A stretch of 24,383 bases of DNA from a virus. Every line of letters starts with the position of its first letter. The first letter of the stretch is position 1. Positions 3 through 24,383 of this stretch are shown here, one piece after another. Under the pieces are notes generated by a model. It was not told where the DNA came from. It made no database searches and saw only the letters and a list, made by a program, of their open reading frames with translations. The stretch lies in the IMG/VR virus record IMGVR_UViG_3300025109_000064; one strand, 5' to 3'. The position numbers and the translations under genes were made by a program.

Positions 3-476
3 AAAAACTTACCTATTAATTGGAAACTAATAGCAGCTGGTCTTGCAGCAACAACAGGAGGTGGCGGTGAGACTTTTGGTGAAACAGGTACTCGTATGAT
101 GCAAGCATATCACGGAGAAGAAGTAGCTCAAGCCGGAGCTAGACAAGCTGAAGCAGATGTTATAGCAAAATTAGCACAAGCTAGAGGATTTGATGCAGCT
201 AGTATGTCTCCTTTATTCACTTTGATGGCAGCTATGGAAAAATCTAAATCAGAAGCTCAAGAAAAAGTATTAGATAGAAGATTAAAAACAAACTTAGGAG
301 TTTTAGACTATTTTGGATCGGAAGTATCTCCATTTACATCTCCTGAAATAGGAGCAGCTAATGTTCAAAAAGGTGCTACTTTAGCAGATCTTCTTCTTAA
401 TCAAAGTGACTTAAGATATCAATTAGGACAGACTAGAAATCCCACTCCCCCCTACACAGCAACACGTAAACCATAA
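3..476 (+). CDS. 5'-truncated Gly/Ala-rich protein, probably a small internal virion (ejection) protein
   Basis: The frame is open from position 3 (KNLPINWKLIAAGLAATTGGGGETFGETGTR) into the ATG at 96, so the gene starts before the window. It lies directly upstream of the giant virion-type gene, as T7 gp14/gp15 lie before gp16. Function is inferred from position and composition only. Confidence 0.5.
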   Translation, partial: KNLPINWKLIAAGLAATTGGGGETFGETGTRMMQAYHGEEVAQAGARQAEADVIAKLAQARGFDAASMSPLFTLMAAMEKSKSEAQEKVLDRRLKTNLGVLDYFGSEVSPFTSPEIGAANVQKGATLADLLLNQSDLRYQLGQTRNPTPPYTATRKP

Positions 477-490
477 TAAGATAATTAATC

Positions 491-3400
491 ATGGCTACAT
501 ACTCGCTTGATTTTAATGATGGTAAAGAACCAACTGACGTAGACGTTCCTGAAGAATTTTCAACAACACAGGAAGATGCTGAGTCATGGATTAATAGTAA
601 TTATATGCCTTATCGGGATGCTGGATTAGCAGTAGCCGAAGAAGACCCCGACCACCCACTATCAGGATTACCTGATTGGGCGGCGCGGGGTTTTTATCGT
701 TTGGCACAGGGCGCTAACATATGGCAGTTACGTCTTGGTTTAGATAATAAAGAAAACGCTGCAGAAGATATAGGACAATATACAGAATTTATTAAAAAGC
801 TTCCATATGATCAGGAGAGTATAGATTTTATGGCTAATATTTCCAAAGCAAATGATGAAAAAGATATTTGGAAATCTTTAGGATTATATTGGGATGCTGT
901 AGCAGCTAAAGGTGGTCTTGGAGCTTTAACAGAAATTGTTGGAGAATCTTTTGCTATGTATACTCCAACGTTAGTAGGTGCTATTGGAACTTCTTTAACT
1001 CCTGCTGGTAAAATAGGTGGTGCGATTGTTACAGGATTAGGAAGTCTTGGTATTGAATTTGGAGATGTAACTGTTCAGTCAATAGATAAGTTTCTTAGAG
1101 AAAAAAGAGGCACAGACATTACTGATAATAAAGCTGTTATAGATATCTTTAGTAATGAAAAACAGATGGAAGAGTTTACTGATTTTGCTCTTAAGCGTGG
1201 TGCTCCAATAGGATTAGCGGATGCTGCATCTTTTGGTCTAGCTGGTAAATTATTTTCTGCTGTTAACAGATCTATTAATATGGGTGAACGAGCACTTAAA
1301 GCAGGTACAGAAGGAGCAAAACAATATAGCAGATTAGCAAAAACAGGAATGTTAGGTGCAGCAGCTGCTACTGAAACTATGGCTATCCAACCATTTATGG
1401 GTGGTTTAGGTGAGTATGCTGCACAGGTTGTAGCTGAAGAGGATAGAAGATGGGGTGATGTATTTGTAGAAGCAAGTGCTGAAATTATTCCGGGTGCTTT
1501 TGAAACTATGCTTGGTGTTGCAGTTATAAATGAAGAACAACGGAAAATCTCAGGTGAAAAAATAGAAGAGGAATTTCTTGATCTTAAAGATTCTAATACT
1601 TTAATTGCAGATGCAATAATAGATGATATAGATAAAACATCAGAAAAAGATGAACCTAATAAAATATTTACTATGTTAGCAAATCCAACTAAATTACAAA
1701 AAATATATTTTACACATTTAGCAGATTCTATAGGAAGAAGTTCTATTTTAGCAGGAGAACCAATCACACCAGAGAGTATACAAAGAGGATCTGGTTTTAA
1801 AAATAAACAAACTGCAAGAATTGTAATGGATAATCTAGTTACTACTGGAGATGTAGTTGCTACGCCTGAAGGTACATATGTTTTTACTGAACAAGCTGAA
1901 AAGAAATATAATGAAGCTCCTATAAAGAGTAATAATAAACAGAGGAAAGCACTTAGAAGACTTGCTACCCCACTACTAGAAGCAGCAGCACCTGCTCGTT
2001 ATGTAATAATGAGAGAATCACCAACTGGATATTCAGTTGCAAGTAAAAATGGTGCAAGATTAGCTTATCCTACAAGAAAAGAAGCTGTAGCTCAAAAGAA
2101 TAGTTTATTAAATAAAGATAAAGACACAGCAAAGAAACAAAAACAGAAACAGAAAAATAAATATAGTGTTGTAAAACTTGAAAAAGGTAGAGATATACAT
2201 CTTCCTACTGGAACAGTTGTAGCTCCTTCTGCTACATTACAAACTTTACTTAAGTCTGCACCAGATATAAAAAATCCTGAAGAATGGAGAACTGTACCAA
2301 ACTCAAATGAATTAGGTGAAAAGATAATGCTGCCAACAGATGTAACTGGTGGTGGTTGGTTTAAATTTAGATATAATACAGAAACTGGTGAGCCAGAATA
2401 TCAGTTCTTATCTCAAAATATTCCTTTACAAGCTGCATTAGTAGAGACATTAACTCCAGAACAAACAAACACTTATAATGGAAACGCTCCAACAAAGAAT
2501 GCTTTAATCAATTTGAATAGCGCATCACTTGATGAAAATTTATCAACCTATTTTAATCCTTTGTTTCTCCATAACGAAAGTGATAAAAACTTTTTTCAAA
2601 ATATGATAAATAAATATAAGTTAGATCCACAAGCGTTGAAAGATGAAAGTAATCAGGTAGCAGCAGTTTTACAATATATAGATAGAATGAGTGCTAGAGC
2701 TGTAGAACGAGTGGTAGAAGAAAAAGAATTATTAGAAAGGGAAGGTGGTGAAGAAACTACGTTTTATAAAGACAAAAACGATGATATTGGTTTTATAGTA
2801 AATGAAGAGATTCTAGAGGAATTAGCTAAAACTGAATTAGCAAAAACTGAAGGTACTTTTGAATCAGTCCCTACCTATAAGAATCCTAACACTGGACAAC
2901 AGTGGGTAAAGATAATAAATAAAGATACAGGTGATGAATATCTAGATAAAGAAAGGTGGGAACGGGCTAAAAAAGATGAGATAAAATTAACAAAAACGGG
3001 AAATCTTTTAGATTGGCCTGTAAATACTAATGGAAAACCTCTTACTCCAATACAGGCACAAGCAGCAATTGATTCCGGTACAGCTAAGTTAAGACCAGTA
3101 ACTTCTGAACGTGGAATTGTAGAGGGTAAAGAACTTGCTATTGGTGGAGATGAGTTACCAATCATAGATTATTATCTTAAACAGATTAAAAACCTTAAAT
3201 TAGGATCTGCCGGATCAAACTCACTTGCAAGTATATTAAGAGAATTTGAAGCATTTGTATTAAGTAAAGGGGAGACGTTTGGTAATGCACCAAATAGACT
3301 TTATCATGAAGGAGTTGGTAGAAATAAAGAAAGATCCCAAATAAATACTGAAACTTTAACAGAATATTTTACAGATCTTGAAAATCGTTTACAGGATAAT

Positions 3401-6400
3401 CAAACACTAAGAAATAAATTCTTTGCTTTAGGAGAGTTTATAGATTGGCTTAGAGAAAGTACTATTCTTGATCCTAATGTAGCAAATCCGATGAGTCAGG
3501 TTTCAGAACCTCCAAGAGGAGATAAATTAGACCCAATAGTAGCTCCTACACCATCAACGTGGAAAATATATGAAGAAGTAAGCACAGAACGGGCAGAAGA
3601 ATATAGAAAAAAATATTACGATAAAGTTAAAAACAATATTGAAGCTAAGATGCAAAAGGGTGACTTTATAAATGATGGAATACTTAAAAAAAATGAAGCT
3701 GGTGAAAAAATAACGTTAGCAGATTTAACACCTGCACAAAAAAATATAATAGAAACTAGATTTAGAGAAGGTCAAGAAGCGTGGGGAAAACCCGGTGCTT
3801 CTGATGACAAATGGTTAGCAAATAAAGAACGAAAAGAATGGTCGGCAGCTGTTCGTAGTGATGTTATGTTGAAACTTCAGTATAGGGCTGCATTACGTGC
3901 TGGAGAAGTGGTATCACTTTATTGGAAACCAACTGTATGGACTAAAAAGAGTGGAAAGAAAGTAACAGACCTTAAAATAGCTGGATTAGAAACAGCGATA
4001 AATAACGGTGAAGAATATATGAGAATGTATCAACCAAAACAAGATACTTTTAAAGATTTTTTCCTAACACAAGATGTTAAAAATATTATTGAATTGTGGG
4101 TAGCCGGTACTTCAGAAAATGTACTTCCAACAGGAGGTCTAATGATATCTCCGAGAGATAGTTCAATACTTGATGTAGAGAGAAAAAAGGATTTAACACC
4201 TGAAGTAAAAGAAAATAATCTTAAGTTTTTATTTCCATCAACTCAGCATAAAAAGAAAACTACAAGTGCGGCTGGAATAACTAGAGAAGGTGGTCATGTT
4301 GCAGAAGAAACTTATCAAAGAGCTTGGAAAGGTGTTCGTTCAGCAAAAAGACAGGATGAACTAGAACCTATTTTAGATAGTCTTTGGGGAAGATTTACTA
4401 AAAGAATGATAGCTAAAAATCTACCAGCACCAGACATGAAAGATTTTCATTCTCATATGGCAAGACATGCTCGTTTAACACATGTTATGAATACTGGTAG
4501 AGTTACTATACAACAACTTATAGGACTAAGTGGTCATGGTGGGATTAGTGGTGTTCAACCTTATATTAAAGGGATAGATAGAAAGAGAGTATTTGCTACT
4601 TTAAAGGAAATAGATCGAGCTAAAATAGCGGAGACATTTGATGAAGAAATAGCAGTAGGAAAAGCAGTAGGAGAAACAGAAAGATTTACTGAAGAACAAA
4701 TTAAAGAGCAAATAAAAGAATCCTTACAAGAGTATGCTATGAGATTAGAAATGGTTTTAGGTTCGGATACAGTTAAAGCAATGAACTTAATTGATAATAA
4801 TGAAGTTCCTGAAAATGTAGCTCGTATGAAATATAATGAATATATGGATTCTAAACGGGGGTACGGAGATTTAATAGTAATACATAAATTTCCTACCAAT
4901 CCACTTGAAATGGGTATGGATCCACATTTACTTGGACAAGTAAACAGAATTATGAGAGACAAGAATGTAAGTATGCCTGAAGCTTTTAAAGAAGTAAATG
5001 AAACATCTCTCACCAATAATATAGCAGAAGCTACAGACTCTGCTACTGAAGAAGCTGAAGGACCACCCAAAGAACCTCCTAAAGAACCACCCAAAGAACC
5101 TCCTAAAGGACCATCGGGTTTTGGTAGAAAAAGAAAACGTGCTGCTCCTGCTGTCGCTAAAACTATTCCTGCAGCTGTTGAAGAAAGATCACTGGAAGAT
5201 ATTTTCTTTGATGAGGAAGGTAGAGAAGAGGGTAGAAGAAGTGAGGGAGAAGATTCAACCGCTGATTTAAATACAATAAATAATATTGATTCAAGAATTA
5301 GTAGACCAGAATATATAGATCCTAACAGTATGAAAACTGATTTGGAAAGTATAGATGATGAACTACTTGACAATCCTGCCATAAGATTCTTGACAGAAGC
5401 AGGTATGATAGATATACATGACGGTAAAAAACGTGCAGAAATAATGGAGGCATATAAAAGAAAAATTCAAGATATTGAAGTAGGAAAAACAGGAAGCATA
5501 GCAAGACTTTTTTTCCTTTTAGGTAGATGGCTTTGGCATCCTACATCATTCATGCAAATGCATCCTGCATCAGTACCTGCTTTAACATTACTAGAACATT
5601 CACGTAGGATGCGTGAGGCTATTCAAGAATTTATATTAAGAGATTCACATAATTATTATAATAGGTTAACTCATGAACAAAGACATAAGATTAGTAATGT
5701 TTCAGTAATTCTAAATAAGCTTTATCCTTTTACTAACACAGATCCTAATTACATACAATTAGAAAGACTTGAAGATGGATCTGCAAGACTTGTATTACCT
5801 ATAGCTCCTGCAACAGAACCAACTTCAAAGAAATATAAAGATAAAGATATAATACAACGAGTATCTGTATTCTCTCAAGAACATCTTGATCGTTTCTATA
5901 AAGTATTAGATGTTCAACCGGGTTCAATAATTGAATTAAGTCCTGAAGAACTTGTTGAATTTGATAACGTACAAGAAGCGTTTAAAAGAGGATATGAAAC
6001 AATGGAGGGGGCGCTTCTGAAAAGTTCTGAACAGACTCATCCTTTATATGGAGAACTACGAATATCTGTAGATGATACAGTTGCATCATCTGTAAGTAAA
6101 GTTAGATACTCTGCTATTGAATATTTAAAAGATGTTAGTAATAGTGAAGAATTTATTAACGAAGGAATAAATAAAGCGATAGCTAATGAAGAAACAATGG
6201 ATCTTGTTTACTTTGATGAGAATGATGAAATAATCGAAGAAAATATTATTATATTAAAAAACGTTGATCAATTTTATAAGCATCTTAATCAAATAATTGT
6301 AGAATTAGAAACTATGAATCAAGCTGGTGATGCGCCATCTAAAAAAATGATGGTAGAACTTGATCGACTGTCTTCAGTTATGGCTGGAATGCTAGATGTA

Positions 6401-8911
6401 GTAAGTGACACTATGAAAGAATCAGTGATAGCTAAGAAATTAAAGATAGCTTCATCACAACTTAAAACATTGATACATATAAGTCAGTCTCAACAGGTTA
6501 GAAATGCACATCGTTACTATGTTCCACAGTTGAGAAAAGGTAAATGGTTCTTTAACGTAATGAGAAAAGCTGATAACACATCAGTACATTATGAAACAAA
6601 TACACCACAATGGGGGGATGCCCTTAAATCAGAAGGTGGTAAAGCTGAACTTGAAAAAAGACGTAATGAAATGTTACAAGAATATTCTTCAGACTTATAT
6701 ACTGTTACTCCTGTAAGAGAACGAACACAAGAACTAATTAAAAAAGAATTAAAACAAAGTGATCTACCACTTATTCATCAAATGGTTGTGGCTTTAGGCT
6801 ATAAAGATGCAAAAGAAATTACAGGATTTGTAAATGAAATACAACAGGAACTAACTACAAAGAGTTTTGGAAGATATTTACGACCAAGAAAAAAAGGAAA
6901 ATTAGGAGATAGAGGAGGAGTCGAAGGATATATAACACCTAATAATAGAGAAAATTATCTTGCTGATCAACTTGCTAAAATGGCAAGAACAACTGCTAAC
7001 GCTGCTTCTAATATGATTTTTCATACACCAATCATGAAAGCTACAGAAGTATTAAGAAGTAAAGAAGGTGGTATACCGCTGGCAGAATATGTAGATAAAC
7101 AACTGGAATATATTTATCGTGATGCCGACGCAGGAGCTATGGTTAAGTCTTTGGCATTTCATTGGGCTATTGGTTTTAATTTTAGTTCAGCTTTAGTGAA
7201 TGCCTCTCAACCATTTATGACAACTATGCCAATATTAAAATCTATAATAGGATTTAATACTGGTGATAGTGCTATGATCGAAGTATTAAAAGGAATACAA
7301 GATGCTGCGACAATTGCTGATCCGTTTAACGCTGGTATAAATAGGTTAGGTTTTGATTTTTCGTCAAAAACATTACCAGATAGATTAAAAGGTGGTAGAA
7401 TAACGCAAGATGAATGGGCCATGCTTCGTAACTTATATCGTAAAGGGATTATTCAAGCTATCATGAACATAGAACTTGGTTCTAATATAACAGAAAATAT
7501 AGGAGCAATTGAATCAAGATTTACTTTTGGTCGTAACGGAACATTAGGACAGGTTGGGGCTAAAGTATTAACAGCCAGTGCTTTTGCATTTGCTTATGTT
7601 GAACAGATAAACCGTATCTCAGCAGCATTGGCTGCATATCGTTTAGCATCACGTTCTACAGATATGTTGAAGAAGTTTAGTGATTTTTCTCAAGTTACTG
7701 AATGGTCATTTGAAGAGATGACACCTGAGAATGCTGCAACTATGGTGGTATTAAAGTCTCAATTTTTAATTACTAAAGAAAATAGGCCACAATTATTTCA
7801 GCATCCTTTAATGAATGTAGCTACACAGTTTATGTCGTTTGTATTACAGTATATAGGTCTTTGGGCGCAATCACTTAGAATAATTATGGGTACTAAGGGA
7901 GGAGGAACTGAAGGTAAGACAGCTGAACAAAGAAAACTTGATAGACGTATAGGAAGTATTTTATTAGGAGGATTAGTTGTAACAACTTTCTTTGCAGGTG
8001 GTGCTATGGGTGCGCCGTGGATGGAGAATGTAAGAGTTATGTTAAAGGAATTAAGTAAGACAGCTAAATTAAATGGTTTTGATCTTGAGTTTGGTATGAG
8101 AGAAGCATTAGCTGAAATGGGATTTGGTGGAACTACCGTTGATATGATTACTCGTGGACCTGCAAGCCATATATTAGGTATAGATGTATCAAAACGGATA
8201 ACAACATCAGAAGTAATTCCATATAATCTTATTACTGGTGATCTGGTAACTGCTTTTGGTCCTGCTGGTGCTTTATTATTTGACGGTATGAGAAGAGCAA
8301 AAGATGCTGCACAAGATATGAGACAAACAGGTATTGGTTTCAATGAACCATCTTTAAAATTTCTTTCTAGTTTTATTCCTATTGGAATAAGAAATGGGAT
8401 GGAAGCTGCTCATAGTATGTATGATCCTAATTTACCAATCAGAACATTAAAAGGACGAGTGATTATGCCGAGTCAAGAAATCGGTAAATTAGAACATATG
8501 GCACGCTTCATTGGATTTACTCCTACTTCTTTACGTCAGAAACGTTTACAAAAACAGTATATAAATTTTCTTGAAGCAAGACCTAAAGCAAAGCAGGATT
8601 ATTATTATAGTCAGATTTCTAAAGTTTTAGCAAGAAGAAATAAAGAACAGGCGGATGGTAATATTAAAGGTGTAGAATCTGCTAATGAAATGATAGAAAG
8701 TTTAATGGAAGATATTAGGGAAATAAATGCAGAAGCTATAGCAGATAAACGACCTGATGTATTTCTTAGAATGGGGAATGAAACTTTACGCAACAGGCTT
8801 ATGGTTGAAATGTTTGGACAAACAGATCCGCGTGTTGCAATGGCATCTGCACGTAAACTTGTAAGAGGTTTTCTACATCCCGATTATTTAGAAAGGTTGG
8901 GATTATTATAA
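491..8911 (+). CDS. Giant (2806 aa) internal virion / DNA-ejection-like polyvalent protein with an embedded tyrosine recombinase domain
   Basis: Uninterrupted 8.4-kb ORF. It has a Gly/Ala-rich hydrophobic N-terminal region, a PLxRFG-like motif (YYVPQLRKGKWFF, ~6515-6553) and a helical C-terminal region typical of podovirus gp16-like/large polyvalent proteins (e.g. SQFLITKENRPQLFQHPLMNVATQFMSF followed by a hydrophobic segment). A Xer-like domain lies at ~3161-4620. Confidence 0.75.
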   Translation: MATYSLDFNDGKEPTDVDVPEEFSTTQEDAESWINSNYMPYRDAGLAVAEEDPDHPLSGLPDWAARGFYRLAQGANIWQLRLGLDNKENAAEDIGQYTEFIKKLPYDQESIDFMANISKANDEKDIWKSLGLYWDAVAAKGGLGALTEIVGESFAMYTPTLVGAIGTSLTPAGKIGGAIVTGLGSLGIEFGDVTVQSIDKFLREKRGTDITDNKAVIDIFSNEKQMEEFTDFALKRGAPIGLADAASFGLAGKLFSAVNRSINMGERALKAGTEGAKQYSRLAKTGMLGAAAATETMAIQPFMGGLGEYAAQVVAEEDRRWGDVFVEASAEIIPGAFETMLGVAVINEEQRKISGEKIEEEFLDLKDSNTLIADAIIDDIDKTSEKDEPNKIFTMLANPTKLQKIYFTHLADSIGRSSILAGEPITPESIQRGSGFKNKQTARIVMDNLVTTGDVVATPEGTYVFTEQAEKKYNEAPIKSNNKQRKALRRLATPLLEAAAPARYVIMRESPTGYSVASKNGARLAYPTRKEAVAQKNSLLNKDKDTAKKQKQKQKNKYSVVKLEKGRDIHLPTGTVVAPSATLQTLLKSAPDIKNPEEWRTVPNSNELGEKIMLPTDVTGGGWFKFRYNTETGEPEYQFLSQNIPLQAALVETLTPEQTNTYNGNAPTKNALINLNSASLDENLSTYFNPLFLHNESDKNFFQNMINKYKLDPQALKDESNQVAAVLQYIDRMSARAVERVVEEKELLEREGGEETTFYKDKNDDIGFIVNEEILEELAKTELAKTEGTFESVPTYKNPNTGQQWVKIINKDTGDEYLDKERWERAKKDEIKLTKTGNLLDWPVNTNGKPLTPIQAQAAIDSGTAKLRPVTSERGIVEGKELAIGGDELPIIDYYLKQIKNLKLGSAGSNSLASILREFEAFVLSKGETFGNAPNRLYHEGVGRNKERSQINTETLTEYFTDLENRLQDNQTLRNKFFALGEFIDWLRESTILDPNVANPMSQVSEPPRGDKLDPIVAPTPSTWKIYEEVSTERAEEYRKKYYDKVKNNIEAKMQKGDFINDGILKKNEAGEKITLADLTPAQKNIIETRFREGQEAWGKPGASDDKWLANKERKEWSAAVRSDVMLKLQYRAALRAGEVVSLYWKPTVWTKKSGKKVTDLKIAGLETAINNGEEYMRMYQPKQDTFKDFFLTQDVKNIIELWVAGTSENVLPTGGLMISPRDSSILDVERKKDLTPEVKENNLKFLFPSTQHKKKTTSAAGITREGGHVAEETYQRAWKGVRSAKRQDELEPILDSLWGRFTKRMIAKNLPAPDMKDFHSHMARHARLTHVMNTGRVTIQQLIGLSGHGGISGVQPYIKGIDRKRVFATLKEIDRAKIAETFDEEIAVGKAVGETERFTEEQIKEQIKESLQEYAMRLEMVLGSDTVKAMNLIDNNEVPENVARMKYNEYMDSKRGYGDLIVIHKFPTNPLEMGMDPHLLGQVNRIMRDKNVSMPEAFKEVNETSLTNNIAEATDSATEEAEGPPKEPPKEPPKEPPKGPSGFGRKRKRAAPAVAKTIPAAVEERSLEDIFFDEEGREEGRRSEGEDSTADLNTINNIDSRISRPEYIDPNSMKTDLESIDDELLDNPAIRFLTEAGMIDIHDGKKRAEIMEAYKRKIQDIEVGKTGSIARLFFLLGRWLWHPTSFMQMHPASVPALTLLEHSRRMREAIQEFILRDSHNYYNRLTHEQRHKISNVSVILNKLYPFTNTDPNYIQLERLEDGSARLVLPIAPATEPTSKKYKDKDIIQRVSVFSQEHLDRFYKVLDVQPGSIIELSPEELVEFDNVQEAFKRGYETMEGALLKSSEQTHPLYGELRISVDDTVASSVSKVRYSAIEYLKDVSNSEEFINEGINKAIANEETMDLVYFDENDEIIEENIIILKNVDQFYKHLNQIIVELETMNQAGDAPSKKMMVELDRLSSVMAGMLDVVSDTMKESVIAKKLKIASSQLKTLIHISQSQQVRNAHRYYVPQLRKGKWFFNVMRKADNTSVHYETNTPQWGDALKSEGGKAELEKRRNEMLQEYSSDLYTVTPVRERTQELIKKELKQSDLPLIHQMVVALGYKDAKEITGFVNEIQQELTTKSFGRYLRPRKKGKLGDRGGVEGYITPNNRENYLADQLAKMARTTANAASNMIFHTPIMKATEVLRSKEGGIPLAEYVDKQLEYIYRDADAGAMVKSLAFHWAIGFNFSSALVNASQPFMTTMPILKSIIGFNTGDSAMIEVLKGIQDAATIADPFNAGINRLGFDFSSKTLPDRLKGGRITQDEWAMLRNLYRKGIIQAIMNIELGSNITENIGAIESRFTFGRNGTLGQVGAKVLTASAFAFAYVEQINRISAALAAYRLASRSTDMLKKFSDFSQVTEWSFEEMTPENAATMVVLKSQFLITKENRPQLFQHPLMNVATQFMSFVLQYIGLWAQSLRIIMGTKGGGTEGKTAEQRKLDRRIGSILLGGLVVTTFFAGGAMGAPWMENVRVMLKELSKTAKLNGFDLEFGMREALAEMGFGGTTVDMITRGPASHILGIDVSKRITTSEVIPYNLITGDLVTAFGPAGALLFDGMRRAKDAAQDMRQTGIGFNEPSLKFLSSFIPIGIRNGMEAAHSMYDPNLPIRTLKGRVIMPSQEIGKLEHMARFIGFTPTSLRQKRLQKQYINFLEARPKAKQDYYYSQISKVLARRNKEQADGNIKGVESANEMIESLMEDIREINAEAIADKRPDVFLRMGNETLRNRLMVEMFGQTDPRVAMASARKLVRGFLHPDYLERLGLL
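3161..4620 (+). other. XerC/XerD/Int-family tyrosine recombinase domain (core-binding + catalytic) inside the giant protein, aa ~891-1375
   Basis: Core-binding signature INTETLTEYFTDL..QTLRNKFFALGEFIDWL..NPMSQVSEPP. Box I is LKLQYRAALRAGEVVSLYW (R1136). Hairpin Lys is in MYQPKQD (K1183). Box II is FHSHMARHARLTHVMNTGRVTIQQLIGLSGHGGISGVQPY (H1322, R1325, H1349, Y1358). The H-to-Y spacing of 9 matches XerD H270/Y279. Confidence 0.88.
5063..5107 (+). repeat. In-frame 12/24-bp tandem repeat encoding (PPKE)3-PPK, a proline-rich linker
   Basis: CCACCCAAAGAACCTCCTAAAGAA is followed by CCACCCAAAGAACCTCCTAAA; the protein reads EGPPKEPPKEPPKEPPKGP. Confidence 0.9.
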
Positions 8912-8997: not shown

Positions 8998-9762
8998 ATG
9001 ACTACTCAGAAGAACCACATCTTTATAGGGTGGGACAACCGCGTAGCTCTATCATCTGTTGTTGCAAAGTACAGTATCTCACTCCATAACGATGATTGTT
9101 CTATCCAGTTCCTTAATCGCAGGAACTTACAAACCCAACATCTATATTACAGAAAGGCTTTCTTATCTGAAACCGGTCAATACTTTGACACACTAGATAG
9201 TAAGCCTTTTTCTACAGAGTTTTCTTTCTCACGTTTTCTTGTTCCGGAACTATGTAAACTCCAACAGAAGGAAGGGTGGGCCATGTTTGTAGATGGTGAC
9301 TTTCTTTTTCTGGATGATGTGTCGAAATTATTTTCTTTGGTAGATAAGAAGTATGCTGTAATGTGTGTTAAGTTTAACTGGGTACCCCCAAAGGAAGAAC
9401 GTTATAAACTTGATGGAATCATACAGACACGCTACAGTAAAAAGCTTTGGTCTTCGTTGATGTTGTTTAATCTACAGCATCCGGATGTTATGCGTCTTAA
9501 TAAGACTGTCGTTAATGATTCGACGGGTTCGTTTCTTCATAAGTTCAGGTGGACCACCAAAGAAAATGTTGGAGGACTACCACCTGAATGGAACTACGTT
9601 CCGGATATAACCAGTAAGTCTATAGAGCCTAAAGCTATTCACTATACCAAAGGTGGACCGTGGTTTGAAGAATACCGGAACTGTCCGTATAGTGATATCT
9701 GGATAGAATACATGCATAAAATGCCTAAGAATTTTTTAACCAATAATTTATTGGATCAATGA
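8998..9762 (+). CDS. GT-A fold glycosyltransferase, CDI-like (GT8-related) family, paralogue 1
   Basis: Motifs IFIGWD, STEFSFSRFLVP, GWAMFVDGDF (DxD), KYAVMCVK, KKLWSSLMLFN, FLHKFRW, WNY and IHYTKGGPWF match the plant CDI/phage nucleotide-diphospho-sugar transferase family as I recall it. Confidence 0.85.
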   Translation: MTTQKNHIFIGWDNRVALSSVVAKYSISLHNDDCSIQFLNRRNLQTQHLYYRKAFLSETGQYFDTLDSKPFSTEFSFSRFLVPELCKLQQKEGWAMFVDGDFLFLDDVSKLFSLVDKKYAVMCVKFNWVPPKEERYKLDGIIQTRYSKKLWSSLMLFNLQHPDVMRLNKTVVNDSTGSFLHKFRWTTKENVGGLPPEWNYVPDITSKSIEPKAIHYTKGGPWFEEYRNCPYSDIWIEYMHKMPKNFLTNNLLDQ

Positions 9763-12035
9763 TAATGAATAAAGATTTCACAGTCGTAACATCCTTTGCT
9801 GTGCGTGATTGGGAAACGTATGGTAAAAGGTTTGTTGAAAGTTTCATAGAGTTCTGGCCTGAAACAATTAAGTTGCTTTGTTATTGTGACGGTTTCCCTA
9901 TGCCGGAAGATGCCCCGCAGGTAGACAACATAGAATATATAGACCTGCTTGACAATCAAGATTTAATAGACTTCAAAGAAAGGAACAAACAATTCAATGG
10001 AACACTCCCACAAAAACCTTACAACTTCTACGAAGATGCCATCAAATTTTGTCACAAAGTATATGCACAAAACATGGCAGCTAATAAAGCCAAAACTGAA
10101 TGGTTACTTTGGCTCGACGCCGACAGTGTTACCTACGAACCAGTTGGAGTTCAACTTCTCAAGAAAGTCTGTGATAGTGAATATGACATCGTTTATCTTG
10201 GTCGTAAAGACGCATATGCAACGTGTTCTTCATTTATAGGTTTCAATCTTAGTAGTAGTGTTACCCCTGTATTTATGGATGATTACGTTAATTACTACAA
10301 CAGCGATGAGGTTTTAAAACTCAAGTGTTTCGCAGATAACTTCGTGTTTGATAGGGTGCGTATCATACATGAAGCACATGGTATGCGTTCTCTTGACCTG
10401 ACACCTGACTGTACGATACTGGAAGCGTTTGATCTATGTGAACTCAGTAAAGCTATTATACATTTAAAGGGCAACAGGAAACGTACCAGTCGAGAAGTAA
10501 GAGTAACTGCCGCCAGATACCATGACCTGTTTAATACGGTTCAACATTATAAACGAAAGAATATTCTTGAGGTCGGTACATGGAATGGAGACACAGCTTG
10601 CGGTATGATTATGGCAGCTTTCCAGAACAGTGATGAAGTACACTACACAGGCATAGATCTATTTGAAGATGCTGATGAGGTTAGCGATAAGAAAGAATTT
10701 AATGTAAAAGCTCACTACTCTAAGAAAGCAGTTTCTTTAAAGCTTCAGGCGTTAGCTAAAGAATATGAATTAGAGGATAAGAAACTTACGTTCCATCTTA
10801 TAAAAGGAGATTCAAAAGAGAAACTGAAGATCCTAAAGGATAAAAGCATGTGTGGGATGTATAATATTTTTCCCGATTTTGTTTTTATAGATGGTGGTCA
10901 ATCAATAGAAACTGTCAAGAGCGATTTTAATCACTGCAAGAACATCCCTGTCATAGTTATGGATGATTATTATACTGAAGATGAATCAGGAGGTATACCA
11001 GAACCAGAGTATAGGGGCGTCAATGATATTTATAATGATGTGTTGGGAGGTACGAAGCGTACCGGTAAAAAGCAACGGATAATTATTCCTTCCAGTGATC
11101 GGGTTAAAGGTGGGGGGAATGTTAGTCTTGCGTTGATTGTAAATGATCCTAAGCTTCCAAAGTTACCTGATGTTAATAGAGTACCTGTACAGGTTAATCC
11201 AAGAGACTGTGTACCTTCAGATAACATACAGTTTAACGTCAAAGAAAATCTTAAACTCTTTAACAAACGTATGGTTGAAACCTGTCATTGGCATGACGGA
11301 AAGACTGTTATAGTTTCAGGTGGCCCTTCGTTCAAGAAGAAGAAGAATCTAAACAAGATTAAGAAGCTTCAGGATTCAGGTGCAAAGGTTGTTTGTGTTA
11401 AGCATTCACACAATCCTTTAATTGAGAACGGTATTATTCCGTGGGGTTGTGTCATTCTTGATCCGCGCCCATTCGACGGTGTATCAACACATGGTCACGT
11501 AAGAAAAGACTTACTTGAGGAACCACATCCTGAAACAAATTATATTATTGCAAGCATGACCAATCCTGAAGTAACCAAACACATCAAAACGAACAAAGGT
11601 AAACTACTTGGATGGCATGCATTTACTAACTCCCTGACAGACATGAAAGAACTTGAAGGAGTACAAATGATAACAGGTGGTACTTGTTCAGCCATGAGAT
11701 CGGTTGGTGTTATGCATGTGTTGGGGTTCAGAGAGTTTCATATCTTTGGTATGGACTGTTGCTATGAGGGCACACCTAAAGATATAGAAGAAAAAGATTT
11801 GTATGGTAAAAAGAAATGGCTTAAGGTTGGTATCCTTAATGAGAAAACAAATAAAGAAACAACGTTCTATACTACCGGTGAATTACTGGCATTAGCTCAA
11901 GACTTTGAATCTCTTCTTGAGCGAGATCAGGAAGTTGATATGGATCTTTATGTGTACGGAGATGGTATGGTACCAACCATATTTAAGACATCTGACTATA
12001 AAATCAAACAGAGTTTCGACAAGAAATATACTTGA
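9759..12035 (+). CDS. Three-domain fusion: GT-A glycosyltransferase + class I SAM methyltransferase + Maf/DUF115 (MptE-like) domain
   Basis: N-terminal WLLWLDADS (D120-A-D122). Middle region NILEVGTWNGDTA..YTGIDLF..FVFIDGGQS..VIVMDDY (Methyltransf_24-like). C-terminal VIVSGGPS..VVCVKHS..GIIPWGCVILDPR..GGTCSAMRSVGVMHVLGFREFHIFGMD (DUF115/Maf pattern). ATGA overlap with the upstream gene. Confidence 0.78.
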   Translation: MIMNKDFTVVTSFAVRDWETYGKRFVESFIEFWPETIKLLCYCDGFPMPEDAPQVDNIEYIDLLDNQDLIDFKERNKQFNGTLPQKPYNFYEDAIKFCHKVYAQNMAANKAKTEWLLWLDADSVTYEPVGVQLLKKVCDSEYDIVYLGRKDAYATCSSFIGFNLSSSVTPVFMDDYVNYYNSDEVLKLKCFADNFVFDRVRIIHEAHGMRSLDLTPDCTILEAFDLCELSKAIIHLKGNRKRTSREVRVTAARYHDLFNTVQHYKRKNILEVGTWNGDTACGMIMAAFQNSDEVHYTGIDLFEDADEVSDKKEFNVKAHYSKKAVSLKLQALAKEYELEDKKLTFHLIKGDSKEKLKILKDKSMCGMYNIFPDFVFIDGGQSIETVKSDFNHCKNIPVIVMDDYYTEDESGGIPEPEYRGVNDIYNDVLGGTKRTGKKQRIIIPSSDRVKGGGNVSLALIVNDPKLPKLPDVNRVPVQVNPRDCVPSDNIQFNVKENLKLFNKRMVETCHWHDGKTVIVSGGPSFKKKKNLNKIKKLQDSGAKVVCVKHSHNPLIENGIIPWGCVILDPRPFDGVSTHGHVRKDLLEEPHPETNYIIASMTNPEVTKHIKTNKGKLLGWHAFTNSLTDMKELEGVQMITGGTCSAMRSVGVMHVLGFREFHIFGMDCCYEGTPKDIEEKDLYGKKKWLKVGILNEKTNKETTFYTTGELLALAQDFESLLERDQEVDMDLYVYGDGMVPTIFKTSDYKIKQSFDKKYT

Positions 12036-12724: not shown

Positions 12725-13459
12725 ATGAATAAAGACGTAATGCCTATTTTTATTGGTTGGGATCCTAACGAGATCGCAGCCTATAATGTGTTGGCTCACT
12801 CTATTAACGCTAGAGCCAGCCGTCCGGTATCCATTACGCCACTGATGTTATCTCAGCTTGGAGGACTTATGTGGCGTGATAGAAACCTACTTCAATCCAC
12901 ACAGTTCTCGTTCTCTAGATTCCTGACCCCATACCTTAATGATTATAAGGGTTGGGCTTTGTTTATGGATTGTGATATGCTGGTGCTTGATGATATGGCT
13001 AACCTGTTTGATCTATGTGATGACAGGTATGCAGTCATGGTAGTCAAACACGATCATGATCCAGAAGAGAAGGTTAAATTTCTTGGTGCTACACAGACCA
13101 AGTACGAGAAGAAAAACTGGTCAAGTGTTGTGTTGTATAACTGTAATAAATGCACAGCACTGACACCTGAATACGTTAATACAGCAACAGGTCTTGATCT
13201 TCATCAGTTTAAATGGTTAGGTGACGATAATCTTATCGGAGAGATCCCACACAAATGGAATCATCTGGTAGGTTATGATCAGAGTGTAGATGTATCAGAG
13301 ATATCTAACATTCACTGGACTATTGGTGGACCTTACTTTGATGAGTATGCCGGTTGCGACTATTCTGATGTATGGGTAGATGAACGACAGGATATGTTGT
13401 TTGCTACTGACGGAAGAAAATCTGAATATCTTAAATTAGCAGGTGGAACACATGCTTAA
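12725..13459 (+). CDS. GT-A fold glycosyltransferase, CDI-like family, paralogue 2
   Basis: IFIGWDPNE, STQFSFSRFLTPYL, GWALFMDCDM (DxD), YAVMVVKHD, KKNWSSVVLYNC, LHQFKWL, WNHLVG, IHWTIGGPYF. Strong SD (AAGGAG) upstream. Confidence 0.88.
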   Translation: MNKDVMPIFIGWDPNEIAAYNVLAHSINARASRPVSITPLMLSQLGGLMWRDRNLLQSTQFSFSRFLTPYLNDYKGWALFMDCDMLVLDDMANLFDLCDDRYAVMVVKHDHDPEEKVKFLGATQTKYEKKNWSSVVLYNCNKCTALTPEYVNTATGLDLHQFKWLGDDNLIGEIPHKWNHLVGYDQSVDVSEISNIHWTIGGPYFDEYAGCDYSDVWVDERQDMLFATDGRKSEYLKLAGGTHA

Positions 13460-13721
13460 AAAAATACTAACGACGTTACTTATTGTACCTATGTTTATGA
13501 TTGCTGCGTGTAATCACGATGATAATGATAAAAAACAACCAAAGATTCCCATAGATCCTGTGATTTATCCTGAAGAGGTTGTGCAGCCAAAGATTCCTAT
13601 AGATCCTGTGGTTATTACTGTAGATCCTGTGAATATTATTCCCATAGATCCTGTGGTTTATCCAGAGGAGATTGTGCGGCTAAATATTCCTATAGATCCT
13701 GTGATTTATCCTGAAGATTAG
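13452..13721 (+). CDS. Small lipoprotein built from IPIDPV(I/V)YPEE repeats
   Basis: Likely start is the ATG at 13452 (AGGTGG upstream, overlapping the previous stop), not the GTG at 13443. Signal peptide MLKKILTTLLIVPMFMIAA-C is followed by about 5 IPIDPV-type repeats. Confidence 0.65.
   Translation: MLKKILTTLLIVPMFMIAACNHDDNDKKQPKIPIDPVIYPEEVVQPKIPIDPVVITVDPVNIIPIDPVVYPEEIVRLNIPIDPVIYPED
13552..13703 (+). repeat. Five exact copies of TAGATCCTGTG within the lipoprotein gene
   Basis: Copies start at 13552, 13600, 13621, 13645 and 13693 (spacings 48, 21, 24, 48; all multiples of 3). Confidence 0.9.
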
Positions 13722-15863: not shown

Positions 15864-16295
15864 TTAATCCCTTCTGTTCATCTCTAAATTTAATTCGTTG
15901 ATCAAAACATTAATACGACGACGATGGAATGGAATATCTTTATTGATAATTTTCTTGACAATTCTACGAAGATAATTGTGATCGGTATCTACTAAGGTAC
16001 ATATCTGAGATAGATCATCAACATGTTCTTCGTTAAAGAACCAGTCAATAGCTTCCTCTCTATTCTTAGTAACATCTTTTGGTTCATTCTTTTTCTCTAT
16101 TTGAGTTGCATCTAGTATAGCTTGGTAGATTACAGACAAGAACATAAGTTTCTCAGGACATGGCTGTGTATTCTTAGATAAGAATGTAGTTAAAGTACTA
16201 CTTCCTATGCTGGTGATAGAAGAGTATATCTCGTTAGAAATAATATCCTTATTATATACTACGTATGTTTTCTTTTGTTCTTCTTGTTTTGTCAT
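15864..16295 (-). CDS. Hypothetical phage protein (helical)
   Basis: 143-aa ORF packed into the operon; PEKLMFLSVIYQAILDA..REEAIDWFF..ICTLV pattern recalled from marine phage hypotheticals; no function recognised. Confidence 0.6.
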   Translation of the reverse strand: MTKQEEQKKTYVVYNKDIISNEIYSSITSIGSSTLTTFLSKNTQPCPEKLMFLSVIYQAILDATQIEKKNEPKDVTKNREEAIDWFFNEEHVDDLSQICTLVDTDHNYLRRIVKKIINKDIPFHRRRINVLINELNLEMNRRD

Positions 16296-16998
16296 TCGTT
16301 CTAACTTTGTGTACTAATAATTTACATTTTGTAAGCAACTCATCCCTCTTAAGACGAGCTTCAAATAGGTCGTGGGTATGTAGAGATTTAATTTTCTCTC
16401 TTTGACCAATAATACCTCTAACATCGGGAGGCCAATCAAACCTAAAATAAAATGTCTGATATGAGAGATAAAGATGCCTATGTTCTATGTAAAAAGGAAT
16501 CCTTCTTTTAACTGAAGGTATTATTATTTTTTTCTTCTCCTCATTCCACTGCTCTTCTTGATTTATTATCCTCATTAACTCTACAGCCCACGGAACACCT
16601 TTAGCAGCTTCTTTAATAATATTATTACAATCTACTTTTTTTTTCTTCGTTAACCATTCATCTGGTATTTTATTTTCAGCCCATTCAAAATCATGTTGAT
16701 CACACCAAAATCCGTATGATGTTTTAGAGGTCTTGTTAAGTTTCTTATTAGCGTCCATAAAAACAAATCTTATATCAATAAGTGGGTGTTGTTCTTTGAT
16801 AAGCTTGTGCTTAGTTCTATCACTTGGTTTAAAATATCCCTTAAACTCTATATAAAAACCATAGTCAACAAGATAAAAATCTGGTAAGTATGTCTTACTG
16901 ATAACATACGGTATTCTATTTGGTTCATACTCAAATTTTATTTTAGCATCTGCTAAGACATTTGCAAATTCTTTTTCTGCTTTACTTCGGTAGGTCAT
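16252..16998 (-). CDS. T7 endonuclease I-like Holliday junction resolvase (aa ~1-121) in frame with a DUF6538-like (integrase arm-type) DNA-binding module; fusion hinges on an A9 run
   Basis: YRSKAEK..FEYE..YLPDF..IEFKGYF..DRTKH..DIRFVF..SYGFWC..IPDEWL is the gp3 pattern. The C-terminal part carries HLYLSYQTFYFRFDWPPDVRGIIGQREKIKSLHTHDLFEARLKRDELL. The junction is T9 at 16636-16644 on the + strand. Confidence 0.75.
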   Translation of the reverse strand: MTYRSKAEKEFANVLADAKIKFEYEPNRIPYVISKTYLPDFYLVDYGFYIEFKGYFKPSDRTKHKLIKEQHPLIDIRFVFMDANKKLNKTSKTSYGFWCDQHDFEWAENKIPDEWLTKKKKVDCNNIIKEAAKGVPWAVELMRIINQEEQWNEEKKKIIIPSVKRRIPFYIEHRHLYLSYQTFYFRFDWPPDVRGIIGQREKIKSLHTHDLFEARLKRDELLTKCKLLVHKVRTNDKTRRTKENIRSI

Positions 16999-22179: not shown

Positions 22180-22745
22180 CGGAAAGATAATCCTCTAATA
22201 GCTGCTTCAAGATAAATAACACGTTCATTATATATATCTAAGTCTAAGCCTTTAATCAAGGGAGTAATACGAAAGGGAATAAAGGCAGGAAACACAACCA
22301 TATCACCCGGTAACATATCTATCTTTGTTTCCATCCCATCTAGGTTTATTAATTCACAATTCCCACCAGAAGTATTCTCTGAATTGTCATTTAACTTACA
22401 GATACAAACTAGTTTCTTTTCCTTTTGATGTATACCTATTGGTTTAGGTTCATCACCATAATATCTAACCATGTTGTTCCAGTATTTATGGTGCATATCT
22501 CTGTTGTCTGTATCGTTATCTATTCTAAATATATTTATGTACTCTATACGATCTATATCAAAGTACCAATGATTGTTTTCATTTACTTCCTTAACTACTC
22601 TTTTAATTTCCTTACCCATATTTGATTTAGGTGGAAGACTATACAAAGACTTACCTGTAATCATACTATCTACAATAAGTTTGTTACGTTCCTTTTCATC
22701 AAGAAAGTTTTCATATAGGTACATTATTCTTTTCATTATAGTCAA
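22176..22745 (-). CDS. 2OG-Fe(II) oxygenase-like (prolyl-hydroxylase type) protein with degenerate metal ligands
   Basis: KKLVCICKLND..SGGNCEL..PGDMVVFPAFIPFRITPLIKG..RVIYL..IRGLSFR parallels the usual RKLS..LND..EGGEL..GxxxxFPS..HRVTPVTKG..R..GPxFR pattern, but the distal His is Phe and no HxD is evident. Confidence 0.6.
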   Translation of the reverse strand: MTIMKRIMYLYENFLDEKERNKLIVDSMITGKSLYSLPPKSNMGKEIKRVVKEVNENNHWYFDIDRIEYINIFRIDNDTDNRDMHHKYWNNMVRYYGDEPKPIGIHQKEKKLVCICKLNDNSENTSGGNCELINLDGMETKIDMLPGDMVVFPAFIPFRITPLIKGLDLDIYNERVIYLEAAIRGLSFR

Positions 22746-23230
22746 GTCTTTCCTTTCATTCTTATTAGTTTCCCATTGAGGTTACTATCACTTATAGCTT
22801 GAACATTATTTTCTCCGTAAGCTACTAAACAAGATGGTGCATTGGCACTTTGACCTTGCTCTCCTGATACATAATAAAATTTAATTCTACCTTTGAAAAA
22901 AAATACCGCATCAGCTTTATCCCACACTTGTTCATGAAACCCTATAGTTTCTGTTCGTGCAAATATTAAAGTCATACCGTTACCATGATTAGATAATTTA
23001 TCTAACCACTTAAATGTTTCTTTACCATAAGGGGGGTTACACCATACTCTACCGTACCATTTTTTAGTAAATCCATTATCAAGTTTATTATAATGTTTTT
23101 TTGCGGTATCCCAAGGTCTGTTGATTGGTGAACAAGGGTCTAAATCAAACTCACCTAATGACTTAATTATCTCAGGCGGAGTTAACCACTCATCATTATT
23201 ATTAATATTAATATTAAAATCTTTACTCAT
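22742..23230 (-). CDS. dam: Phage DNA N6-adenine methyltransferase (T1/HP1 Dam-like family)
   Basis: DEWLTPPE..FDLDPCS and VWCNPPYG (motif IV); short single-domain length typical of this family. Target specificity is not determinable from sequence. Confidence 0.82.
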   Translation of the reverse strand: MSKDFNININNNDEWLTPPEIIKSLGEFDLDPCSPINRPWDTAKKHYNKLDNGFTKKWYGRVWCNPPYGKETFKWLDKLSNHGNGMTLIFARTETIGFHEQVWDKADAVFFFKGRIKFYYVSGEQGQSANAPSCLVAYGENNVQAISDSNLNGKLIRMKGKT

Positions 23231-23846: not shown

Positions 23847-24018
23847 TATTCAATACCTTTAATTAAAAAAATATATTATTGATAAGAAATATATTATAAA
23901 CACTAACACTACTAATCTGAGGCGGATCTTTTCATCAGGGTTATATAAGGGCCATCCATAATTATATTTCACATTTCAACGCCTTCCCGGTGGGCACACC
24001 TTCCAACACGCAGCGGGG

Positions 24019-24047
24019 ACGCTACACGAAACGGCAACGTCGGTCAA
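24019..24047 (-). promoter_or_regulatory. Putative sigma70 promoter for the early/replication arm
   Basis: Minus strand TTGACC, 17 bp, TAGCGT (TAnnnT), preceded by a T-tract (UP-like). Confidence 0.55.
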
Positions 24048-24060
24048 GAAAAAAATTCTC

Positions 24061-24089
24061 TTGCATCACCTGTCGGGGTGTGCTAGGAT
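24061..24089 (+). promoter_or_regulatory. Putative sigma70 promoter firing into the repeat array
   Basis: TTGCAT (24061-24066), 17 bp, TAGGAT (24084-24089), with an extended -10 TGn and an upstream A7 tract. Confidence 0.55.
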
Positions 24090-24125
24090 GGAGCGGAAGG
24101 AAAGGGGGGGAGTTATTATAGATAT

Positions 24126-24383
24126 ATCTATAGATAGGATCTATAGATCTTGTCTTTAGAAGTATCTATAGATCCTATCTTTAGATAATATTTATAATAA
24201 TAATCTTTAAAAACTAATCTAAAGATAAGATCTATAGATAGGATCTATAGATCTTGTCTTTAGAAGTATCTATAGATCCTATCTTTAGATAATATTTATA
24301 ATAATAATCTTTAAAAACTAATCTAAAGATAAGATCTATAGATAGTATCTATAGATCTTGTCTTTAGAAGTATCTATAGATCC
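24126..24383. repeat. 104-bp tandem repeat (~2.5 copies, cut by window end) composed of ATCT(A/T)(A/T)AGAT palindromic units
   Basis: Units start at 24126, 24230 and 24334; the only mismatch seen is G>T at 24346. Confidence 0.95.

Follow-up and report, generated by a model that had tools for sequence, protein, structure and literature searches.

A cysteine-free protein of 2806 residues from a marine podovirus carries what appears from its motifs to be a very divergent Xer/Int-type tyrosine recombinase in which the catalytic motif set is complete. The protein consists of two conserved scaffolds flanking a fast-evolving cargo slot, and the recombinase is the only cargo domain that can be recognised in it. 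We read it tentatively as a giant internal virion protein of the polyvalent kind, which would be ejected with the DNA and bring its recombinase into play before any phage gene is expressed; we give this reading slightly less than an even chance. The window, meaning the whole 24,383-nucleotide stretch of viral DNA that was analysed, contains the features collected in Table 1.

Table 1. Features of the window that bear on the recombinase-carrying giant protein
Feature	Position	Strand	Basis or remark
3′ end of upstream 901-aa cysteine-free gene (full length L013:143-2848)	3..476	+	position
Giant ORF, 2806 aa, cysteine-free	491..8911	+	open for 2806 codons
Conserved N-terminal module, aa 1-485	491..1945	+	common to all homologues, 31-40% identity
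Variable central cargo slot, aa 486-1677	1946..5521	+	homologue comparison
Possible core-binding-type region, aa 945-1038	3323..3604	+	NCBIfam XerD model 35-124, E 2e-5, weak
Probable tyrosine-recombinase catalytic domain, aa ~1117-1375	3839..4615	+	PF00589 33.7 bits; phrog_216; XerD alignment
R1136 codon, box I Arg	3896..3898	+	aligns with XerD R148
K1183 codon, candidate hairpin Lys (alternative: K1189)	4037..4039	+	position in hairpin only
12 amino-acid replacements, aa 1294-1326, L001 versus window and L012	4370..4468	+	nucleotide changes nearly all non-synonymous
H1322-x-x-R1325, box II	4454..4465	+	aligns with XerD H244 and R247
H1349 to Y1358	4535..4564	+	aligns with XerD H270 and nucleophile Y279; spacing 9, same as XerD
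Pro-Lys-rich repeat linker, aa ~1523-1541	5058..5113	+	length differs among strains
Conserved C-terminal module, aa 1678-2806, mainly helical	5522..8908	+	homologue comparison
PLxRFG domain (NCBIfam NF032893 'tail-700'), aa ~2140-2733	6908..8689	+	155 bits versus cut-off 100
Most hydrophobic segment of the giant protein, aa 2487-2505	7949..8005	+	hydrophobicity
Endonuclease I (Holliday-junction resolvase) fused to DUF6538, possible partner	16252..16998	-	domain searches

The presence of a tyrosine recombinase in the giant ORF, first proposed from the sequence-only reading, is borne out by profile searches. The Phage_integrase profile PF00589 scores 33.7 bits (E 3.9e-8) against aa 1101-1380 and 30.3 bits (E 4.4e-7) against aa 881-1410, both above the curated cut-off of 27.1 bits, which the entire protein misses slightly at 26.3 bits. 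The two halves of the profile match apart and in colinear order, aa 1117-1152 to profile positions 18-52 (17.9 bits) and aa 1299-1359 to positions 111-166 (20.3 bits). NCBIfam XerC matches with 33 bits (E 3.6e-8) and the XerD and XerA models match as well; the scores of 22-33 bits for the Xer models TIGR02224, TIGR02225 and NF040815 compare with equivalog cut-offs of 220-335 bits. By its motifs the module looks Xer-like, but it is no Xer orthologue. The PHROG integrase family phrog_216 matches over aa 1120-1360 (E 0.0018), and language-model features compared with integrase clusters give a score of 0.97. Neither phmmer against 1.8 billion representatives nor word-based searches found relatives of the module, and the AlphaFold model of aa 881-1410, built from a 2-sequence alignment, has a pLDDT of 32.

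The six catalytic residues lie where the earlier reading had put them, in the sequence contexts ALRAGEV, QPKQD, HSHMARH, SGHGG and QPYI, all in one frame uninterrupted by a stop. A phmmer alignment to XerD (1a0p), which at E 0.3-1 is not significant alone, pairs R1136, H1322, R1325, H1349 and Y1358 with chain positions 146, 242, 245, 268 and 277, which are R148, H244, R247, H270 and Y279 of XerD; K1183 is placed by position only. The C-terminal spacings are canonical, with 24 residues from R to H and 9 from H to Y. The claim that the module has only short insertions does not hold: the R-to-K distance is 47 residues versus 24 in XerD, the K-to-H distance is 139 versus 72, and ~75 additional residues separate the N-terminal region from box I, so that the insertions sum to ~165 residues. 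Of the two domains originally proposed, the catalytic one stands, while a clear core-binding domain does not, with no Pfam match in aa 881-1100 and a weak match to the XerD model. The module shares with XerC, XerD and the phage integrases the R-K-H-R-H-Y hexad, the colinear boxes I and II and the C-terminal spacing. It differs in being embedded in a 2806-aa protein, whereas those are free enzymes of 300-400 aa, in its insertions, in its weak or absent N-terminal DNA-binding domain and in profile scores of ~30 bits, far under the Xer equivalog cut-offs.

The fusion is real and is found in several strains. The recombinase module lies in frame in five sequences, the window and the contigs L001, L012, L013 and L014, which come from separate assemblies and are 98.9-99.8% identical. 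The region near position 3100, one of two places where a chimeric join had been suspected, is read through continuously by L001, L012 and L013, and the other, near 4650, by all four. The ORF is continuous in the first three contigs, and L014 deviates by Ns and 1-nt indels only, of which three fall within runs of A and the fourth at a site that is polymorphic. Within the module the GC3 of 0.145 and the codon-usage distance of 0.116 (null 0.145 +/- 0.018) match the rest of the gene and thus indicate no recent insertion. The catalytic hexad is identical in four strain variants, some complete and some partial, while 22 positions of aa 881-1410 vary; as the variants belong to a single narrow lineage, its conservation can be assessed over ~1-2% divergence only. 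Nearly all differences between strains fall in the giant gene and show a non-synonymous excess (45.5 versus 4.5; pN/pS 2.8; P 0.01), which would fit an arms-race protein. The replacement cluster of L001 sits just before and around HxxR.

A motif-complete Xer/Int-type module with HxxR had been described inside a giant protein, and this carrier proves to be of PLxRFG type, its C-terminal PLxRFG region also matching phrog_11358 and phrog_37402. What the ~19 distinct homologues have in common is limited to ~480 aa at the N-terminus and ~1130 aa at the C-terminus, and their centres, 376-1119 aa long, show no similarity to the centre at aa 486-1677. A recombinase occupies the slot in one lineage only among these homologues, and in distant PLxRFG proteins the cargo comprises LPD1, LPD5, other LPDs, methylase and SNF2. 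Profile searches detected no MuF, protease or LPD domain in the 2806-aa protein. The hydrophobic segment in the C-terminal module is a possible membrane-inserting helix.

The proposal that the carrier is an ejection-like protein agrees with its gene position, its composition and its fold matches. In 14 relatives the gene order runs from a large cysteine-free protein through a ~140-aa protein and a 660-935-aa protein with 0-2 cysteines to the giant protein. The giant gene is the last of the structural module and is preceded in syntenic relatives by homologues of 'virion structural protein' and 'DNA ejection protein'. In the window the slot of the relatives' 660-935-aa ejection-protein-like gene is occupied by the upstream 901-aa gene, for whose product no homology to any known ejection protein was detected; its 669-aa counterpart in L002 matches phrog_4287 'DNA ejection protein' (E 3e-12). 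Cysteine is absent from all 20 giant proteins and makes up 1.9% of the window's other proteins (P ~5e-24), and the 530-aa recombinase module has none against an expectation of ~10. Cysteine is likewise missing from T7 gp15 and gp16, compared with 1.4-2.7% in T7 enzymes. The lack of cysteine in the giant protein speaks for its export in its entirety, recombinase module included. The model of the C-terminal region (pLDDT 65) matches the final segments of giant phage proteins whose annotations name LPD, methylase or SNF2 domains (E 1e-18 to 1e-10) and, in BFVD, 'Internal virion protein D' of the roseophages CRP-5 (E 3.5e-6) and CRP-4 (E 9e-5), these annotation-level matches having low TM-scores of 0.2-0.4. 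No PDB fold matches at E <= 0.001, and no Pfam or PHROG match to the characterised ejection proteins T7 gp15/gp16 and P22 gp7/gp16/gp20 was obtained. Context, composition and fold matches of this kind suggest indirectly that the giant protein may be packaged.

The run of large genes closing the structural module resembles T7 gp14, gp15 and gp16, and T7 gp16 also has an enzymatic cargo domain, annotated as endolysin, which is a lytic transglycosylase. In contrast to the giant protein, the T7 cargo targets the cell wall whereas the predicted cargo here targets DNA; the giant protein is also twice as large and has no sequence or PDB-level fold similarity to the T7 internal virion proteins. Retroviral integrase comes into the cell ready-made alongside the viral genome, and conjugative relaxases travel with DNA and rejoin it. 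The relaxases and the virion RNA polymerase of phage N4 enter with DNA (PMC5512222). Like these three, the module is proposed to be a pre-made enzyme acting on a genome before expression; unlike them it is of Xer/Int type, and its delivery, demonstrated for them, is one that we infer. A further likeness is to the phage polyvalent proteins and NF032893 PLxRFG giants, single giant polypeptides whose genes neighbour those of virion proteins and in which variable cargo is joined to a common C-terminal PLxRFG module. Packaging and injection of polyvalent proteins are predicted but unproven (PMC5512222; Iyer, Burroughs, Anand, de Souza & Aravind 2017). Polyvalent proteins are characterised by several unrelated effector or LPD domains per polypeptide, compared with one recognisable cargo domain here, and that domain is of a class the paper leaves unmentioned, 'integrase' and 'recombinase' having 0 occurrences in PMC5512222. 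This agrees with the earlier impression that a recombinase lies outside the usual cargo. We found no paper describing a fusion of a recombinase to a giant ejection-type protein.

In the favoured mechanism, whose packaging, ejection, catalysis and substrate we infer, the giant protein would be built into the capsid core and would leave through tail and envelope together with the DNA, which would account for its cysteine-free composition. The recombinase module would then act on DNA in the new cell ahead of phage gene expression. The most probable substrate would be the phage's own genome, whose ends it might join or circularise at a specific site, or it might act as a nick-and-reseal swivel. 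P1 Cre-lox, which circularises the incoming linear, terminally redundant genome, is a functional analogue of this role; Cre, however, is synthesised inside the cell as an early gene product, is unpackaged and acts at lox, and no lox-like site was identified here. Against this mechanism, full strand exchange takes four protomers acting on two sites, and no candidate site was identified. The window also encodes a fusion of endonuclease I to DUF6538 (continuous in two contigs), and G002, the complete relative without the recombinase, has no DUF6538. Tyrosine recombinases produce Holliday-junction intermediates and endonuclease I cleaves such junctions; the fusion protein may resolve those of the recombinase. 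The more specific idea that a lytic marine podovirus injects an active recombinase, which joins or circularises its own genome or cuts host DNA before transcription, perhaps with the help of this endonuclease, is possible but doubtful.

Instead of an enzyme, the module might be an exapted recombinase fold with which the ejected protein clamps DNA in a sequence- or structure-specific way and which performs no strand exchange. Within the capsid core, or while the genome enters the cell, it might for instance keep hold of the leading end. Its extreme divergence from all known recombinases and the want of a clear core-binding domain would suit such a role, as would the large insertions and the replacement excess with its hotspot adjoining HxxR, which could reflect a changed or lost function; a tetramer within a 2806-aa scaffold protein is also difficult to envisage. 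Pseudo-enzymes, however, usually lose their catalytic residues, whereas all six are kept here with H-x-x-R and both C-terminal spacings canonical, and the hexad is constant in every variant while its surroundings change. We consider the clamp unlikely.

Improbable, too, is a late role, in which the recombinase, still in the producing cell and tethered at the procapsid core or portal, would process replicated DNA, such as concatemer junctions or branched forms, around packaging, perhaps jointly with the endonuclease I-DUF6538 fusion. T7-type core proteins are in place ahead of DNA packaging, and DUF6538, usually located N-terminal to integrases, is fused to a Holliday-junction-cutting nuclease in this same lineage. 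This co-occurrence is known, however, from a single lineage, and relatives whose replication and packaging genes are the same do without any recombinase, which the basic cycle therefore does not require. A module free of cysteine likewise speaks for export together with its carrier.

Lysogeny is less likely as the purpose. A true integrase delivered pre-made, with the genome integrating at once by analogy with retroviruses, would fit the Xer/Int type with HxxR and the lack of any free-standing integrase in the 24-kb window. The temperate reading proposed at first nevertheless fares poorly: PF00589 is absent from a CheckV-complete 59-kb relative, and the suggested search for prophage copies of the giant-protein family found none among 185,579 species genomes. 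Pelagiphages of the HTVC103P type (45% PolA identity), which are the nearest phages in culture, have no integrase and are described as lytic, and the same goes for related environmental phages. The window yielded no repressor, excisionase, tRNA gene or tRNA-like attP, and a function in lysogeny is very improbable.

Confinement of the module to one lineage and the start of L014 at window position 2985 might hint at misassembly, or at insertion of a mobile integrase into the giant gene, but this is close to excluded by the in-frame contigs of other assemblies (three of four across ~3100, four of four across ~4650), by flanks in which no repeats, stops or composition shift were found and by a module as cysteine-free as its carrier.

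The phage may thus deliver a ready-made DNA-rearranging enzyme at infection. If this is true, virion-delivered site-specific recombinases would be an undescribed cargo class of the polyvalent proteins.

The finding lies in a 2806-codon ORF (491..8911), and the tyrosine recombinase module inside the giant protein that it encodes is, on the evidence of sequence comparison, real. The two halves of the catalytic domain each match PF00589 separately and in the correct order (see the table). The NCBIfam models of XerC, XerD and XerA match weakly (best 33 bits, E 3.6e-8, far under the orthologue cut-offs), PHROG integrase family 216 matches aa 1120-1360 (E 0.0018), and protein-language-model features group the module segment with integrase clusters (0.97). 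The catalytic residues R1136, K1183, H1322, R1325, H1349 and Y1358 are present at exactly the positions named in the sequence-only reading. Pairwise alignment with E. coli XerD, obtained from shorter phmmer queries against the PDB and used for residue mapping only, not as evidence of homology (E 0.3-1, non-significant by itself), pairs R1136 with R148, H1322 with H244, R1325 with R247, H1349 with H270 and Y1358 with Y279, with a chain index offset of 2 throughout. XerD was the sole PDB match of these shorter queries, and the 530-aa module as a whole gave none. The H-x-x-R motif and the distances from R to H (24) and from H to Y (9) are XerD-like. The insertions are longer than first described: R to K spans 47 residues versus 24 in XerD and K to H 139 versus 72, corresponding to about 23 and 67 inserted residues, and about 75 extra residues precede box I. 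Profile searches point only faintly to the core-binding domain that had also been proposed, and an AlphaFold model of aa 881-1410, lacking alignment depth, reached a pLDDT of 32. Identity as a topoisomerase IB or protelomerase seems less likely, the profile matches being to PF00589 and Xer models and the motif being HxxR...H...Y.

The module stands in the same frame in four other contigs of the lineage, all from marine metagenomes (L001, L012, L013 and L014), at 98.9-99.8% nucleotide identity. The region near 3100 is crossed by the first three and that near 4650 by all four; at both places, where a chimeric join had been feared, these independent contigs are continuous, so that an artefactual fusion is hardly credible. 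Single-nucleotide indels in L014 (aa 866, 899, 1546 and 2162) could be taken for real frameshifts bracketing the module. This is rejected: three are located within runs of A, the fourth is at a polymorphic position, and the contig, which also has Ns, shows just as many indels outside the gene. In G+C, GC3 and codon usage the module resembles the remainder of the giant gene. A promoter and terminator scan revealed neither enrichment nor any signal at the borders of the module, hence there is no sign of separate module expression.

The carrier ends in a PLxRFG domain covering the C-terminal ~600 aa (NF032893, 155 bits; cut-off 100). The protein database, IMG/VR and metagenomes together yielded about 19 distinct homologues of 1867 to 2692 aa. 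All share with the giant protein an N-terminal stretch of ~480 aa and a C-terminal one of ~1130 aa at 29-40% identity, and their centres (376-1119 aa) are unrelated to its 1192-aa centre; the architecture is therefore a pair of conserved scaffolds with a variable cargo slot between them. Pfam searches of the centres of seven homologues and of the two unexplained parts of the giant protein's own centre gave no match, nor did a language-model search of aa 486-880. Enlarged slots without a recognisable domain are seen in two relatives, at L019:4800-12875 (1119 aa) and L010:4472-11758 (856 aa). Among more distant PLxRFG proteins, LPD1 and further domains of the 'large polyvalent protein' type occur. 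The C-terminal 1129 aa were modelled from a 19-sequence alignment (pLDDT 65, pTM 0.56); Foldseek found no PDB match to this model at E <= 0.001, the hits being generic helical repeats only. In BFVD it matches, with TM-scores of only 0.2-0.4, the C-terminal chunks of giant phage proteins that carry LPD, methylase, helicase or SNF2 annotations (E 1e-18 to 1e-7) and, less strongly, 'Internal virion protein D' of roseophages CRP-5 (E 3.5e-6) and CRP-4 (E 9e-5). In cultured phages tblastn found no match to the C-terminal region.

Three indirect lines, from position, composition and evolution, suggest that the giant protein is an ejected virion protein. In 14 relatives the structural module closes with genes for, in this order, a large protein, one of ~140 aa, one of 660-935 aa and the giant protein. 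The 669-aa gene of relative L002 matches a PHROG 'DNA ejection protein' (E 3e-12), with a 'virion structural protein' upstream. All 20 giant proteins of the family (1867-2806 aa) are devoid of cysteine, as are the 901-aa upstream protein of the window lineage and the large proteins encoded directly upstream of giant genes. Against a mean of 1.9% cysteine in the window's 14 remaining proteins, zero in 2806 residues has P ~5e-24; the recombinase module alone has none against ~10 expected. The T7 ejected proteins gp15 (747 aa) and gp16 (1318 aa) likewise contain no cysteine and gp14 one, whereas T7 polymerases, helicase and exonuclease contain 1.4-2.7%. Pelagibacter phage HTVC104P encodes at the same genomic position a 1638-aa protein, gp54, which also lacks cysteine; phmmer and a family profile detect no homology between gp54 and the giant-protein family. 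Cysteine avoidance would suit a chain that crosses the periplasm unfolded.

Among the homologues recovered, the recombinase fills the central slot in one narrow lineage only. No relatives of the module were found by tblastn in 50,697 phage records, by an IMG/VR pattern scan, by phmmer in 1.84 billion representatives, or by word-index searches, made at giant lengths and, up to E 10, at integrase lengths. The proposed conservation and dN/dS test is consequently confined to ~99%-identical strains. Differences among these fall almost entirely in the giant gene and are mainly non-synonymous. Between the window and L012 there are 45.5 non-synonymous versus 4.5 synonymous changes (pN/pS 2.8, P 0.01), and the covered portion of the downstream neighbour is unchanged; compared with L014, most other genes show 0-1 differences, the exception being endonuclease I (~25). 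The changes cluster at aa 824-830, 997-1005, 1294-1326, 1477-1501, 1523-1551 and 2354-2358. Judged from these substitutions, the pattern is that of a conflict protein. It is unlike the work of a diversity-generating retroelement, not being adenine-specific.

The window derives from a podovirus-like marine genome (G+C ~35%) in which a plus-strand gene module converges with a T7-style replication module. By DNA polymerase, Pelagibacter phages HTVC103P, HTVC104P and HTVC115P come closest among cultured phages (44-46% amino acid identity), and the closest cultured replication modules are those of pelagiphages of HTCC7211. Paralogous phrog_28018 genes stand on both sides of the glycosyltransferase/methyltransferase/MptE-like fusion, a counterpart of which (763 aa) is kept in L002. 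The lipoprotein-like ORF at the point of convergence is probably a spanin-type lysis gene; its repeat (13539-13717), considered as a second copy of the window-end palindrome array, is a coding repeat and was rejected as such.

Features of the window and PF00589 matches of the giant protein
Feature	Position	Strand	Remarks
PF00589	whole protein		26.3 bits, E 7.2e-6; cut-off 27.1
PF00589	aa 881-1410		30.3 bits, E 4.4e-7
PF00589	aa 1101-1380		33.7 bits, E 3.9e-8
PF00589, first half alone	aa 1117-1152		profile 18-52; 17.9 bits, E 0.0028
PF00589, second half alone	aa 1299-1359		profile 111-166; 20.3 bits, E 5e-4
Replacement cluster in L001	4370-4468 (aa 1294-1326)		12 replacements, almost no synonymous change
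Replacement cluster in L012	4919-4993 (aa 1477-1501)		8 replacements, almost no synonymous change
End of structural module		+
Two glycosyltransferase-like genes		+	phrog_28018
Small lysis-type ORFs		+
758-aa fusion	9759-12035	+	glycosyltransferase-2-like, Methyltransf_24, MptE-like
Small lipoprotein-like ORF	13443-13721	+	signal-peptide-like start, Cys, 48-nt coding repeat (Pro-Ile-Asp-Pro units)
T7-style replication module, converging		-	ribonucleotide reductase, endonuclease I, Cas4-type exonuclease, family-A DNA polymerase, primase-helicase, Dam
Endonuclease I fused in frame to DUF6538	16252-16998	-	PF05367, 118 bits; DUF6538, 40 bits
Dam methylase encoded by the phage	22742-23230
G+C-rich non-coding stretch, ~180 nt	23930-24110		in A+T-rich region, just before palindrome array
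104-bp tandem unit, 2.5 copies	24113-24383, to window end		99% identical; upstream of replication module

Endonuclease I is a Holliday-junction resolvase and DUF6538 typically lies N-terminal to integrases; a full-text literature search found no paper mentioning DUF6538. The fusion of the two is continuous in two contigs. In L014 neither the fusion nor its A9 run is altered, the gene differing from that of the window by a 54-nt linker deletion and many replacements. Two relatives, L002 and the CheckV-complete G002, carry a plain 124-aa endonuclease I without DUF6538, and G002 also lacks the recombinase. Co-occurrence in one lineage is no more than suggestive of a recombinase partner. In the 104-bp unit at the window end, ATCTATAGAT-type palindromes recur at intervals of 12-13 bp and GATC sites are numerous; the array may serve as an origin, mark a terminus or bind proteins, and is a candidate recombinase substrate only by proximity. 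The G+C-rich stretch before it matches no Rfam family, tRNA or tmRNA.

Our preferred reading, held tentatively at somewhat less than an even chance, is that the giant protein would sit in the capsid core or act as an ejection protein, its recombinase cargo entering the cell together with the DNA and working before transcription, with the phage's own genome as the most plausible substrate. The reaction could be site-specific end joining or circularisation, as P1 Cre-lox circularises genome ends, or else topoisomerase-like nicking and resealing. No substrate site for the recombinase was identified, and the catalytic hexad is unchanged among the strains compared; that the module is a catalytically silent DNA clamp seems unlikely. 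A late role inside the cell, in packaging or junction resolution, is decidedly improbable. True integration into the host, among the roles originally proposed, is more doubtful still: a CheckV-complete 59-kb relative is without PF00589, a search of 185,579 species genomes found no prophage copy of the giant-protein family, and the window has no tRNA and yielded no repressor or excisionase. The related cultured pelagiphages and surrounding environmental sequences are without integrases and are described as lytic (10.1101/2019.12.14.876532). Lysogeny thus has no support.

Integrases and recombinases are nowhere mentioned in the reference survey of polyvalent proteins (Iyer et al. 2017, PMC5512222), and full-text searches found no paper in which polyvalent, ejection or internal virion proteins are described as carrying a tyrosine recombinase. 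The giant protein thus appears to be a polyvalent or ejection protein with a new class of cargo, present in a single narrow lineage. Proteins that enter the cell with phage DNA decide the first minutes of infection, and RNA polymerase, ADP-ribosyltransferases, anti-restriction proteins and wall hydrolases are all known as such cargo. A recombinase among them would pose a mechanistic puzzle, since enzymes of this kind form tetramers and this one would have to function as part of a scaffold protein of 300 kDa. The complete absence of cysteine is a simple compositional marker that may predict ejected proteins in uncultured podoviruses, and the scaffold, which takes central inserts of 376-1192 aa, seems to offer a natural site at which proteins could be loaded for delivery into bacteria. 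With a site-specific recombinase, the range of known ejected cargo would be extended to direct, sequence-specific rearrangement of DNA, and bacterial viruses would have a counterpart of the integrase that retroviruses carry in their particles.
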